A DNA stretch of 64,000 nucleotides from Clostridia bacterium (lineage in GTDB: Bacteria > Bacillota > Clostridia > TANB77 > CAG-508), in assembly GCA_022796855.1 (NCBI GenBank), contig JAAWJM010000004.1, forward strand, positions 464-64,463, given 5' to 3'. Position 1 is the stretch's first letter, and every line of letters begins with the position of its first letter. A model generated the notes under the pieces. That model was given only the letters and a program-made list of their open reading frames with translations. It was not told the origin of the DNA and made no database searches. Positions 30,021 to 34,276 of this stretch are shown in pieces. The position numbers were made by a program, and so were the translations under genes.

Positions 30021-30125
30021 TCAGATTTTTCGCCTACTTGAATATCAATTCTTTCAAGTAGGCTTTTTCTATTGATATTTTTCTATTTTCTTCATATAAT
30101 ATTACTAACAGGAAAGGGGATTTTT

Positions 30126-31523
30126 ATGTTTGAAAATGAAATTGATTTATTAAAAGATGATGTGATTACTTCGACTTGTGAATTAGTTCGAATTCCAAGT
30201 GTATTATCAGAGTCTTCAAACCCATCTATGCCTTTTGGTGAAAATTGCAATAAAGCATTAGAATATATGCTAGATTTAGGAAATCGTTTAGGTTTTCGTA
30301 CAAAGAATGTTGATGGATATTGTGGTTATATTGAATTTGGTGAGGGTGATGAGTTAGTTGGAATTGTTGGGCATTTAGATGTTGTTCCAGAAGGTGAAAA
30401 CTGGACGTATCCTCCTTTTTCAGCTACAATTTCTAAAGATAAAATTTATGGTCGTGGTACTATTGATGATAAGGGACCTGTCATTGCTAGTCTGTATGCT
30501 ATGAAAGTCGTAATGGAAACTTGTAAAATAACAAAACGTGTTCGTTTGATTTTAGGCTTAAATGAAGAAAATGATTGGAAATGCATTGAATATTATAAAA
30601 AACATGAGGAAATTCCCAGTTTTGGTTTTAGTCCAGATGCTGACTTTCCTTGTATTTATGCCGAAAAAGGCTTATTAAGTGTATTCATCTGTTCTCCTAT
30701 CGTAAAAGAAAAAATACAAATTGTAAAGATTGATTGCAATCAAAATGCCATTAATGTAGTTCCAAAATATTGTAAAATTACATTATCGGTGGATAAGTCT
30801 ATTTCTTTGGACGACTGTATTCACAATTTACAAAACCTTGTGGATTCACATCATTTTTCTATCTCCATTCATAAAGAATTCATAGAAAAAAATATTTTTT
30901 CTATGAATTCTCATGGCGTAAGTGCTCATGCGGCTCACCCCGATTTAGGAACTAATGCCATCTCGCAAGCACTTGTAGTACTTTATGAATTTTTCGAAAT
31001 GTATGGAATAACAAATGATTTATTATCTTACTTTTATAAAAATTTAAACTTAGAATATAATGGAAAAAGCTTAGGAATTGATGTACAAGATGAGTCAGGT
31101 TTCCTTACTTTAAATGTAGCACAATTAAATATACAGGAATCTAACTTGGTTCTTGGTATGAATTTACGAATTCCCATTCATACTACCATTGACTTTATAA
31201 AAGAAAACATAACGGCTTCTCTTCCCTCTTCTATGGCAGTTAGTTTTTCTGGCGAAAAGAAAGCCTTGTATCTTCCAAAAGACAATTGGCTAATTCAAAC
31301 TCTATGTGAAGTTTTCCATAAAACGACTGGGCTTGATGCCACTCCTATTGCCATTGGAGGAGCAACCTATGCAAGAGCCTTCCCAAACTTTGTATCCTTT
31401 GGAGCAAATATGCCAGGAAATAAAGATATGTGTCATCAAATTGATGAGTTTATCTCGGTTGATAACTTAATGCTAGCAACTAAAATTTATACAAATGCCA
31501 TTTATGAGCTTTGTAAAAGGTAG
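30126..31523 (+). CDS. pepV: M20-family dipeptidase (PepV/Sapep type)
   Basis: GHLDVVPEGENWTYPPFSATISKDKIYGRGTIDDKGP...GGATYAR. ATG at 30126 (MFENEIDLL). Confidence 0.85.
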   Translation: MFENEIDLLKDDVITSTCELVRIPSVLSESSNPSMPFGENCNKALEYMLDLGNRLGFRTKNVDGYCGYIEFGEGDELVGIVGHLDVVPEGENWTYPPFSATISKDKIYGRGTIDDKGPVIASLYAMKVVMETCKITKRVRLILGLNEENDWKCIEYYKKHEEIPSFGFSPDADFPCIYAEKGLLSVFICSPIVKEKIQIVKIDCNQNAINVVPKYCKITLSVDKSISLDDCIHNLQNLVDSHHFSISIHKEFIEKNIFSMNSHGVSAHAAHPDLGTNAISQALVVLYEFFEMYGITNDLLSYFYKNLNLEYNGKSLGIDVQDESGFLTLNVAQLNIQESNLVLGMNLRIPIHTTIDFIKENITASLPSSMAVSFSGEKKALYLPKDNWLIQTLCEVFHKTTGLDATPIAIGGATYARAFPNFVSFGANMPGNKDMCHQIDEFISVDNLMLATKIYTNAIYELCKR

Positions 31524-31549
31524 AATGGTTTTCTCCATTCTGCCTTTTA

Positions 31550-32026
31550 CTATTCTACTAAATCTTCTAATAATATTTTTCTTATTCTGTCAATATCAGG
31601 AAAAATCAAATTAATTCCATTTTCTTTTAATCTAAAGATTTTCTTTACTTTTTCTGTAATCATACGTCTTGTTTCAGAAGGAACTTGTAGAGCTTGTCCA
31701 TTTACTGTATCAATATGGTCAATGTATTTTGAAGTAATGGGGAACATATTTTGTATTAAAAAAGCATGTTCTCTACCTCTATAATTTCCAATTACAATTG
31801 TATCACATTTCTTATATTTACTTATTTTGTTTTCAATAATAGTTTTATATTTTTCTATTTTACTACTCATCGGAATAAACCACATTACTTTATCATCATT
31901 CATTTGTAAACAAAAATAATTTGGTCTTGTCAAATTTCCTTCATGATTTTTCATTAATTTTTCATCGTTTACAAATTCAAAATAACTTTCTTTAATATGA
32001 TATACATAGCCTTGTTTTATTTCCAT
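31550..32026 (-). CDS. Type III toxin-antitoxin toxin, ToxN/AbiQ/CptN-like endoribonuclease (tentative family)
   Basis: 158-aa protein immediately downstream of promoter, tandem repeats and hairpin, which is the canonical type III TA layout. The RPNYFCLQ...WFIPMSSKIEKYK region resembles the ToxN/AbiQ core. Confidence 0.65.
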   Translation of the reverse strand: MEIKQGYVYHIKESYFEFVNDEKLMKNHEGNLTRPNYFCLQMNDDKVMWFIPMSSKIEKYKTIIENKISKYKKCDTIVIGNYRGREHAFLIQNMFPITSKYIDHIDTVNGQALQVPSETRRMITEKVKKIFRLKENGINLIFPDIDRIRKILLEDLVE

Positions 32027-32045
32027 TTATACACCCCTAAAACAA

Positions 32046-32075
32046 GTCCTTTGTTCTTGATATAGAACAAAGGAC
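32046..32075 (-). terminator. Hairpin between antitoxin repeats and toxin gene (attenuating terminator)
   Basis: Perfect 11-bp stem GTCCTTTGTTC / GAACAAAGGAC with an 8-nt loop. Confidence 0.65.
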
Positions 32076-32083
32076 CACTAAAT

Positions 32084-32190
32084 TTACAAAATGATATGAT
32101 TTATTACTCGCACCAATCACAAGCGAGAACATTTGACGAAATGATATGATTTATTACTCGCACCAATCACAAGCGAGAACATTTACTTTC
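32084..32190 (-). ncRNA. Candidate type III antitoxin RNA: 2.1 tandem repeats of 50 nt
   Basis: 32089-32133 and 32139-32183 are identical 45-mers at a 50-nt period. A partial third unit begins at 32184. Each unit has an internal CTCGC...GCGAG stem. Confidence 0.65.
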
Positions 32191-32197
32191 TATATTT

Positions 32198-32227
32198 ATT
32201 ATACAATCCTTTTACTTTAAAAGTCAA
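32198..32227 (-). promoter_or_regulatory. Sigma-A promoter of the type III TA operon
   Basis: Minus-sense TTGACT (32222-32227), 18-nt spacer, TATAAT (32198-32203). Confidence 0.6.
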
Positions 32228-32331
32228 GCGCTTTTATACAATAAATATATTATATTTTATGCAATTCTTTTAAAAATATTAATTTCTGGCAACAAAAAAT
32301 GACCCCAAGGGTCATTTTCTTGTTTACTATA

Positions 32332-32613
32332 TTATTCTGCTGAATCTTCTGCTACTTCAGCATCTGGAGCATCATAAGCTTCTAAGATAGCTGCTTGGAT
32401 TTTCTCTCTTGTTTCAGCATTGATTGGATGAGCTATATCTTTGAAATCTCCGTTTGGAGTTTTTCTGCTTGGCATAGCTATAAATAATCCATTTTGGCTT
32501 TCGATAACTTTGATATCGTGTATTACGAATTCATTATCGAATGTTACAGAAGCAACAGCTTTCATTCTGTTCTCTGAATTTACTTTTCTTAAACGTACAT
32601 CTGTAATTTGCAT
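32332..32613 (-). CDS. spoVG: Septation/sporulation regulator SpoVG
   Basis: [65 protein letters not shown]. Confidence 0.93.
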
Positions 32614-32890
32614 ATTGCGCACCTCTTTCTCATGTTTTATATTTGTACATAAAATTGTACTATCTATGTACAAATATATTATTCGTCAAAAATAACTTTT
32701 TTCCTTCTTGTTTTTACAAAAAAGAAAAACTTTTTTACGAAATTGTTCCTTTTCTTTTATAGGATACATATTTTTAACACTTTTTATACATAATACATAA
32801 AATAATATTGAAAAAAAAACGGTTACAGTATATAATTGTTTTGTTGTAAATTATATACTATGATTTGTAAAATAAAAGGGGCGAAAAATC

Positions 32891-34276
32891 TTGGCAAATA
32901 TTGATAATATAAAAAAATATAAACACGTACATATGCTTGGTATTGGTGGAGTTAGCATGAGTGGCATCGCGGAAATTTTACATCGTTTTGGTTTTACGGT
33001 TACTGGTTCTGATGCAAACGATTCTTCTATTATTCGCAAATTACAAAAAAATGGTATCCCAGTTACCATTGGGCATGATTTTGATCATTTAAAAAAAGCA
33101 GATGCGGTTGTATATACTGCTGCGATTAAACAAGATGATCCTGAAATGGTTGTTGCTAAACAACAAGGTATTCCTATGATTGAACGTTGTGATTTTTTAG
33201 GTGAGCTCACGAAATCGTTTTCCAATACAATTGGCATTTCTGGTACTCATGGTAAAACTACTACTACTTCTATGGTTTCCGTTTGCTTTTTAAAGGCAGG
33301 GCTTGACCCTAATATTCAAGTTGGTGGTATTGTAAAACAAATTGATGGCAATTACCGTGTAGGAAATAGCGATTATTTTATTATTGAAGCTTGTGAATAT
33401 GTTGAAAGTTTTCTAAAATTTAGACCAAAAGCAGAAATTATTTTAAACATTGATAATGACCATTTGGATTATTTTAAAACCTTTGAAAACATTAAAAATG
33501 CTTTTGTAAAATATGTAAAATTATTACCAGATGACGGTTTTTTGGTGTTAAATGCAGATGATAAAAATTGTCTCGATTTAACTAAGTACACTAAGGCTTC
33601 TTATACAACATATGGCATTGAAAACAAAGATGCTATTTTTACCGCTCGCCAAATTGAATTCGATGATAATGGGTTTGCGAAATTTGATGTATACAAAAAT
33701 AACGAATTGTTTGAACATATTGAATTATCGGTCGCTGGCATGCATAATGTGTTAAATGCTCTTGCTTGTATTAGCTTATGTGACCATTATGGAATTTCTA
33801 GTAGAACAATGAAAGAGGCCCTAAAAGAATTTACTGGAGCTGGTAGACGTTTGGAATATAAAGGTAGCTTCCACGATATTTCGGTTTTTGATGATTATGC
33901 TCATCATCCTACCGAAATAAAAGCAACTTGTCATGCTTTAAACAATAAGAAATTTCATGAATCATGGGTTATCTTTCAACCTCATACCTATAGTAGAACG
34001 AAAAACCTATTAGATGATTTTGTAAGTGCCCTTAGTGAATTTGACCATATTATTGTTGCTGATATTTATGCCGCACGTGAATCCAATACTTATGGTGTTT
34101 CCTCAAAAGACATTGTCGACCGAATTAACTCGGTAAGAAGCACAAACCATTGTGAATATATTTCAGATTTTAAGGATATTGTTTCCTATGTAAAAAACAA
34201 TGCTAAACCACATGATATTGTCTTAACCTTAGGTGCAGGCAATGTAACCGATATTGGACCTATGATATTAGAATAG
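32891..34276 (+). CDS. murC: UDP-N-acetylmuramate--L-alanine ligase
   Basis: HMLGIGGVSMSGIAEIL...GISGTHGKTTTTSM...DDYAHHPTEI. TTG start at 32891. Confidence 0.93.
   Translation: MANIDNIKKYKHVHMLGIGGVSMSGIAEILHRFGFTVTGSDANDSSIIRKLQKNGIPVTIGHDFDHLKKADAVVYTAAIKQDDPEMVVAKQQGIPMIERCDFLGELTKSFSNTIGISGTHGKTTTTSMVSVCFLKAGLDPNIQVGGIVKQIDGNYRVGNSDYFIIEACEYVESFLKFRPKAEIILNIDNDHLDYFKTFENIKNAFVKYVKLLPDDGFLVLNADDKNCLDLTKYTKASYTTYGIENKDAIFTARQIEFDDNGFAKFDVYKNNELFEHIELSVAGMHNVLNALACISLCDHYGISSRTMKEALKEFTGAGRRLEYKGSFHDISVFDDYAHHPTEIKATCHALNNKKFHESWVIFQPHTYSRTKNLLDDFVSALSEFDHIIVADIYAARESNTYGVSSKDIVDRINSVRSTNHCEYISDFKDIVSYVKNNAKPHDIVLTLGAGNVTDIGPMILE

Follow-up and report, generated by a model that had tools for sequence, protein, structure and literature searches.

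We report that the minus strand of the DNA analysed here (64,000 nucleotides of contig JAAWJM010000004.1 from a Clostridia bacterium, hereafter the window) carries between positions 32262 and 31550 what is very probably (at roughly 0.92) a functional type III toxin-antitoxin cassette of the CptIN family. Read on that strand, a promoter is followed by a short leader, two tandem cptI units, a hairpin, a ribosome binding site (RBS) and a 158-aa open reading frame (ORF; Table 1). Membership of the CptIN family is supported by the toxin profile, the toxin fold and the RNA structure, and the cassette is an ordinary further member of the family described in 2012. A preliminary description of this DNA had already read the region as a complete type III module; this is borne out by the CptIN profile, the CptN fold and the pseudoknot repeats, and the coordinates it gave on the minus strand all hold with small corrections only.

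Table 1. Features of the CptIN cassette and its surroundings (window positions), and contents of the corresponding site in other genomes of the genus (genome:contig:positions)
Feature	Position	Strand	Basis or remarks
Conserved upstream element, GCATAAAATATAA + TATATTTATTGTATAA	32234..32262	-	alignment of 15 promoter regions
Sigma-70-type promoter	32198..32227	-	TTGACT 32227-32222, 18-nt spacer, TATAAT 32203-32198
cptI unit 1 (50 nt), AAAUGUUCUCGCUUGUGAUUGGUGCGAGUAAUAAAUCAUAUCAUUUCGUC	32135..32184	-	repeat finding, junctions, pseudoknot pair counts
Unit 1 stem S1	32177-32173 with 32161-32157	-	pseudoknot pair counts
Unit 1 stem S2	32170-32166 with 32145-32141	-	pseudoknot pair counts
Unit 1 A-rich loop L2	32156-32146	-	pseudoknot model
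cptI unit 2 (49 nt)	32086..32134	-	first 46 nt identical to unit 1
Intrinsic terminator/attenuator between cptI repeats and cptN	32035..32076	-	13-pair stem, 6-nt loop, UGUUUU tail; MFE fold
RBS AGGGGUG	32038-32032	-	AGGGG 8 nt before ATG
cptN toxin gene (158 aa)	31550..32026	-	ORF, CptIN profile, AlphaFold model
Imperfect 29-nt inverted repeat	31500..31563		spans cptN stop codon and convergent dipeptidase 3' end
spoVG	32332-32673		beyond the promoter end of the cassette
Empty site	G021:C15:19807-19814		flanks 6 nt apart
Gap at site	G016:C7:24458-24588		129 nt
120-aa zinc-ribbon-like ORF at site	G005:C13:27963-28595		
836-aa pilin-like/leucine-rich-repeat protein at site	G022:C9:16116-18749		

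The RBS and the 158-aa ORF noted in the preliminary description are both present (ORF 32026..31550). The profile search that it had proposed for the ORF gave the NCBIfam CptIN equivalog (NF047359.1) over profile positions 1-150 of 150, with 176 bits against a cut-off of 90 (E 4e-52), while the Pfam ToxN model PF13958 had no match to the ORF at any reported level and the PADLOC AbiQ profile matched it weakly (E 7e-5, 21 bits); the toxin, which had been called ToxN/AbiQ-like, is thus CptN instead. Resemblance to type III toxins, on which that earlier reading was made to depend, was found both in sequence, where phmmer matched the CptN of PDB entry 4RMO (E 7e-24, residues 4-149), and in fold (TM ~0.8). 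The AlphaFold2 model, built with 29 homologues, has a mean pLDDT of 90.2 and its top Foldseek match is 4RMO_A (TM 0.79/0.81, rmsd 3.1, E 8e-12), followed by AbiQ, ToxN-Bt and then toxins of the MazF/CcdB fold. The predicted fold, in which helices flank a twisted antiparallel beta-sheet, is accordingly closest to that of the 4RMO CptN.

In the Eubacterium rectale toxin, CptN-Er, the catalytic triad is Ser51-Ser52-Arg53 (PMC13682666), and the putative active-site triad of the window CptN, S54-S55-K56, aligns with it. Both serines are conserved to 90% or more, and family members have K, R or Q in third place; Lys56 is therefore best read from the alignment as a conservative variant. Six further residues (R34, P35, W49, K59, Q92 and Y101) do not vary among 29 sequences with identities down to 35%. 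D81, S85 and Y104, which place the scissile adenine in CptN-Er (Rao 2015, PMC4627078), align with R, H and D in the window protein; the precise position of the cut and the contacts to the base may therefore not be those of CptN-Er, as would be expected for a co-evolving enzyme-substrate pair. As a separate observation, four relatives (L007:4001-4480, L008:4001-4480, L013:4001-4480 and L014:2993-3480) have an in-frame CGG at cptN codon 137 with a stop few codons later, and a one-base skip at the CGG restores the conserved GINLIFP(D/N)VD tail (+1 frameshift); the window gene reads AAT GGA at that point, has no CGG and needs no shift.

Directly upstream of the toxin gene and on the same strand lie tandem direct repeats (TRF: period 50, 2.1 copies, score 194), with 96% identity between the two 50-nt copies at 32083-32182. 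AAAU junctions at 32184, 32134 and 32085 delimit two complete units of 50 and 49 nt that differ only in their last few bases; the third junction (32085-32082) follows directly after unit 2, and the short leader between the promoter and the units ends with GUAAAUG. From two perfect 45-nt cores with a 50-nt period and a partial third unit, as first described, the two copies with that period and the third junction stand, while the identical core is 46 nt. The repeat number of 2.1, which had been likened to CptI, falls within the 1.9-3.4 copies of the 2012 cptIN survey. AAAUG is invariant at the junctions of 25 distinct units from 16 loci, and AAAU is common to distant CptIN loci as well. An Rfam scan of positions 31000-33000 with E values up to 10 gave no family on the repeats and chance matches only, the best of which (STnc540, 27 bits) lies off the repeats on the spoVG terminator.

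The 50-nt unit, whose folding had also been proposed earlier, was read from the sequence as an H-type pseudoknot and this structure was examined on an alignment. The alignment comprises the 25 units mentioned above, which come from the window and 15 fetched loci upstream of homologous toxins (64-91% protein identity) in unrelated genomic contexts, namely MAGs labelled Clostridia, Clostridiaceae and Bacilli, and metagenome contigs. Stem S1 pairs unit positions 8-12 with 24-28 (CUCGC/GCGAG, 5 bp), and S2 pairs positions 15-19 with 40-44 (GUGAU/AUCAU, 5 bp). For these 10 pairs, standard pairing is found in 250/250 cells and four of the 10 show compensatory double changes (C-G to U-A, G-C to A-U twice, and U-A to C-G), in sequences that are related and provide few independent events, and from which the structure itself was read. 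When the 3' partners were slid by 1-3 columns, 20-64% of the cells were paired and zero compensatory changes were seen. The L2 loop of 11 nt, UAAUAAAUCAU, is A-rich and its UAAUAAA nearly invariant. Together these data argue that the cptI unit is an H-type pseudoknot with an A-rich L2, supported by covariation. An alternative register for S2 (unit positions 35-39) was rejected since the variants A17 and C37U break it, while 40-44 covaries. We also set aside a plain minimum free energy (MFE) fold of the whole array, in which the two units pair with each other and which has no means of showing a pseudoknot; it is informative for the terminator only.

The hairpin between the repeats and cptN has perfect arms of 12 nt each (32046-32057 and 32064-32075), so that the perfect hairpin reported at 32046-32075 is there but with 12-13 bp rather than 11, and its UGUUUU tail runs into the RBS. 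Two terminator-like sites were observed in the region against 0.3 expected from shuffles. All relatives have a hairpin at the same position, with a different sequence in L004, L005, L006, L019 and L023. In uncultured Bacilli MAGs (L006 and L009-L012) we noted a conserved spacer of ~130 nt from the terminator to the toxin ATG, compared with 18 nt in the window; Blower 2012 (PMC3401426) had already observed such gaps. At the other end of the gene, the imperfect 29-nt inverted repeat is probably a bidirectional terminator shared with the dipeptidase gene. It is not conserved between cassettes, the similarity between loci stopping at the toxin stop codon.

The consensus promoter seen in the preliminary description is present and matches 11 of 12 consensus positions, and in an alignment of 15 loci in differing genomic contexts its region is conserved, with the TTGAC of the -35 box and the -10 box invariant. 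The conserved element upstream of it forms the 5' limit of the similarity between cassettes, and in its second half the -10/start region recurs in inverted form. The two arms of this 16-nt inverted repeat (88% complementary; 32191-32206 and 32234-32249 on the minus strand) bracket the -35 box, one lying 5' of it and the other over the -10 box/transcription start. Complementary arms occur in 13 of the 18 related cassettes compared, where, the sequence being AT-rich, 10-nt arm matches are only moderately unlikely by chance; the repeat is absent in L019 and L021. The arms exist in three sequence states in which both change together (TATATTTATT/AATAAATATA, TATAATTATT/AATAATTATA and TACTTGATAT/ATATCAAGTA), and in a poorly resolved toxin tree the well-supported branches force just one change of the repeat. 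For CptIN or other type III systems we found no description of a promoter-bracketing inverted repeat in the literature examined. A divergent or second upstream promoter was considered as its explanation and dismissed, as neither strand has an acceptable -35 box. We regard the repeat as a lead rather than a finding, and a role as regulatory operator or insulator in the CptIN clade as rather unlikely. Separately, the motif GCATAAAATA(T/G)AA at 32250-32262 marks the 5' edge of the cassette, and GCATAAAATA also precedes the promoter in a distant CptIN class with 38% identical toxins (upstream regions of L030, L032, L033 and L034). There it directly abuts the -35 box, so its spacing is unlike that in the window; the motif may act like an UP element or serve for recognition.

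The cassette is bordered on one side by a convergent dipeptidase gene (30072-31523), which turns its 3' end towards it, and on the other by the spoVG terminator (32296-32318). Across genomes of the same genus the contents of this site (window 31524-32295) differ and in one of them, G021, it is empty (Table 1), and the cassette therefore appears to be an accessory insertion of ~0.7 kb at a variable spot; in one further genome (G004, MAG locus L001) it is present and 99% identical. Cassettes in different contexts are similar from GCATAAAATAT (window 32262) precisely as far as the stop codon of the toxin gene. Neither a mobility gene nor a target duplication was seen at the cassette, and a MITE-like element was rejected because there are no terminal inverted repeats or conserved 3' end, the similarity ending at the stop codon.

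The genome (1.8 Mb in 57 contigs) encodes three CptN paralogues, with 100, 45 and 39% identity to the query, each having its own distinct repeat pair. The two further loci are G000:C42:8317-8802 (L025) and G000:C56:53876-54343 (L026); one has 2.1 x 50-nt repeats and the other two 48-nt units too divergent for TRF, and by eye the stem pattern is apparently kept in both. That hosts may carry multiple cptIN loci has been known since 2012 (PMC3401426). In plasmid records CptN homologues were found at ≤45% identity only, and cultured-phage records had no CptN homologue. A viral contig (L018) carries one with 37% identity and its own repeats. Beside a tRNA gene, L031 (G037:C4:129904-130365) is a decayed copy of the cassette with a single repeat and several stop codons in the toxin.

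Among known systems the closest is CptIN of E. rectale (4RMO), which has the same order of promoter, ~2 tandem repeats, terminator and toxin, the same toxin fold (TM 0.8) and a Ser-Ser-basic triad that is retained in the window CptN. It is likewise chromosomal and from a gut Firmicute, in a family for which paralogous loci within a genome are known. CptI-Er, 45 nt long, forms an H-type pseudoknot whose L2 is A-rich, and its 3' A carries a cyclic phosphate (Rao 2015, PMC4627078); its L2 (A27-G35) has an A-minor twist with a kink at U30, which the window L2 recalls. The window RNA likewise combines a short L1 with a long A-rich L2 having an AA-U-AAA motif. The two differ in that the toxins are only ~32-37% identical, Arg53 is replaced by Lys and D81, S85 and Y104 by R, H and D, the window units are 50/49 nt instead of 45 (most of the difference lying in a 4-nt linker between the stems and in a longer single-stranded tail at the 3' end), and a conserved inverted repeat brackets the window promoter.

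ToxIN (Pectobacterium atrosepticum, Bacillus thuringiensis) and AbiQ (Lactococcus) work on the same principle, a toxin endoribonuclease processing its own repeats into pseudoknot inhibitors with a terminator likewise setting the RNA:toxin ratio, and their folds are related to that of the window model (AbiQ 4GLK, TM 0.73; ToxN-Bt 4ATO, TM 0.66). However, their sequence similarity to the window toxin is negligible, ToxI units are 34-36 nt and form heterohexamers, and abortive-infection activity has been demonstrated for them. TenpIN (Photorhabdus; enterobacterial plasmids, PMC13682666) also has two ~50-nt repeats forming an H-type pseudoknot with a long A-rich L2, in a heterotetrameric complex (PMC13682666), but its toxin belongs to a different family to which the window protein has no profile match, and TenpI repeats are often non-identical whereas those of the window are 96% identical.

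The anatomy of the cassette, the toxin family and fold, the kept Ser-Ser-Lys/Arg triad and the covariation-supported pseudoknot are those of CptIN, and by homology to characterised systems we infer self-processing at AAAU, stoichiometry, toxicity and neutralisation; for the processing, indirect support comes from the invariant AAAUG junctions on either side of each unit. The scheme is the canonical one of type III systems, known from published work on ToxIN and CptIN. In it a strong constitutive promoter would drive transcription through the short leader into the pair of cptI units. The majority of transcripts would end at the hairpin terminator and the antitoxin RNA would therefore be in excess, a read-through minority serving as cptN mRNA. 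CptN, whose fold is a twisted beta-sheet as in MazF/Kid, would act as an RNase A-like endoribonuclease. Cleavage of the precursor at each of the three conserved (G)U(N)AAAU junctions would generate 2',3'-cyclic phosphate ends and set free two pseudoknotted RNAs of ~49-50 nt. Spanning the active sites, these would remain attached and lock the toxin, inactive, in a ring of RNA and protein; in the structure determined for E. rectale the ring is made of two proteins and two RNAs (PMC4627078). If transcription stopped, or if the RNA were degraded or titrated, e.g. upon phage infection or DNA loss, free CptN would cleave cellular RNA and arrest growth.

That the features merely persist in an inactive or decaying remnant, with a non-working toxin and/or antitoxin, is suggested by decayed relatives, such as the copy in G037 (L031) with its multi-stop toxin and single repeat, or L033 with one repeat, and by several relatives in which the toxin frame is broken after the CGG codon. 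For the window cassette we consider this very unlikely: its ORF runs over the full length, contains no CGG and requires no shift, the catalytic residues and those invariant in the family are retained, both cptI units and all three junctions are intact, the promoter fits the consensus at 11/12 positions, and the cassette of G004 is 99% identical. The preliminary description had also taken the 50-nt unit to be longer than in the known families and suggested a variant family. According to Blower 2012 (PMC3401426, Table 2), however, units are 40-48 nt in 33 cptIN loci, 39-57 nt in tenpIN and 31-62 nt in toxIN, so the window period is 2 nt above the 2012 cptIN range, and the profile-positive CptIN loci that we fetched have periods of 46, 48, 49, 50 and 51 nt, including a second 50-nt array within the same genome. 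A separate, undescribed type III family, or a ToxIN/AbiQ or TenpIN system, whose RNA unit would be longer and whose assembly would differ, could be argued from these 2 nt, from the 4-nt inter-stem linker and the 3' single-stranded tail of 6 nt vs 2 in the 46-nt unit of L016, and from adenine-specifying residues unlike those of CptN-Er. Against this, the CptIN equivalog model is passed at nearly twice its cut-off, the best match in both sequence and fold is the 4RMO CptN, other profile-positive CptIN loci have 48-50-nt units (among them two paralogues in the genome), and the window unit shares pseudoknot topology, A-rich L2 and AAAU junction with CptIN. The same layout of S1, S2, A-rich L2 and AAAU is seen in distant CptIN loci (L016, L018, L026 and L028-L035) with units of 46, 48 and 49 nt. 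We therefore regard a separate family as extremely unlikely and the suggested variant family as unsupported, since relatives and paralogues alike carry 46-51-nt units.

A functional CptIN cassette is compatible with more than one role, and it is quite possible, at somewhat below even odds, that the present one is a selfish addiction or stabilisation module and not an abortive-infection defence; this reading concerns nothing but the role and fits the molecular mechanism given earlier. CptIN-Er stabilised plasmids and aborted none of the coliphages tested, and the Ruminococcus torques CptIN was likewise without phage resistance (PMC3401426, PMC4627078); in the window a bare ~0.7-kb unit lies among housekeeping genes with no recognisable defence island, and there are three paralogous copies in the genome. 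On the other hand, the ToxIN, AbiQ and TenpIN relatives abort phage infection (PMC3401426), the phage tests of CptIN were made in a heterologous host with six coliphages only, and the CptN homologue with repeats on the viral contig L018 fits a conflict between phage and host or between phages. A role of the window CptIN cassette in phage defence may be inferred from its relatives; CptIN loci in E. coli gave no phage resistance, and a defence role for the CptIN family is unproven.

In summary, the window contributes a further CptIN cassette, intact and so far unannotated, from a gut Clostridium lineage that is uncultured, and leaves the existing knowledge of type III systems unchanged. The locus illustrates how cassettes of ~0.7 kb appear between housekeeping genes without a mobility gene. 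If the inverted repeat at the promoter were regulatory, it would give the CptIN clade added transcriptional control or insulation from read-through. The natural pair variants in the stems (A-U/G-C, G-C/A-U, U-A/C-G and C-G/U-A) represent ready-made compensatory mutants for tests of toxin-RNA co-evolution, and the documented length of the CptI unit is extended to 50-51 nt with the pseudoknot topology unchanged.
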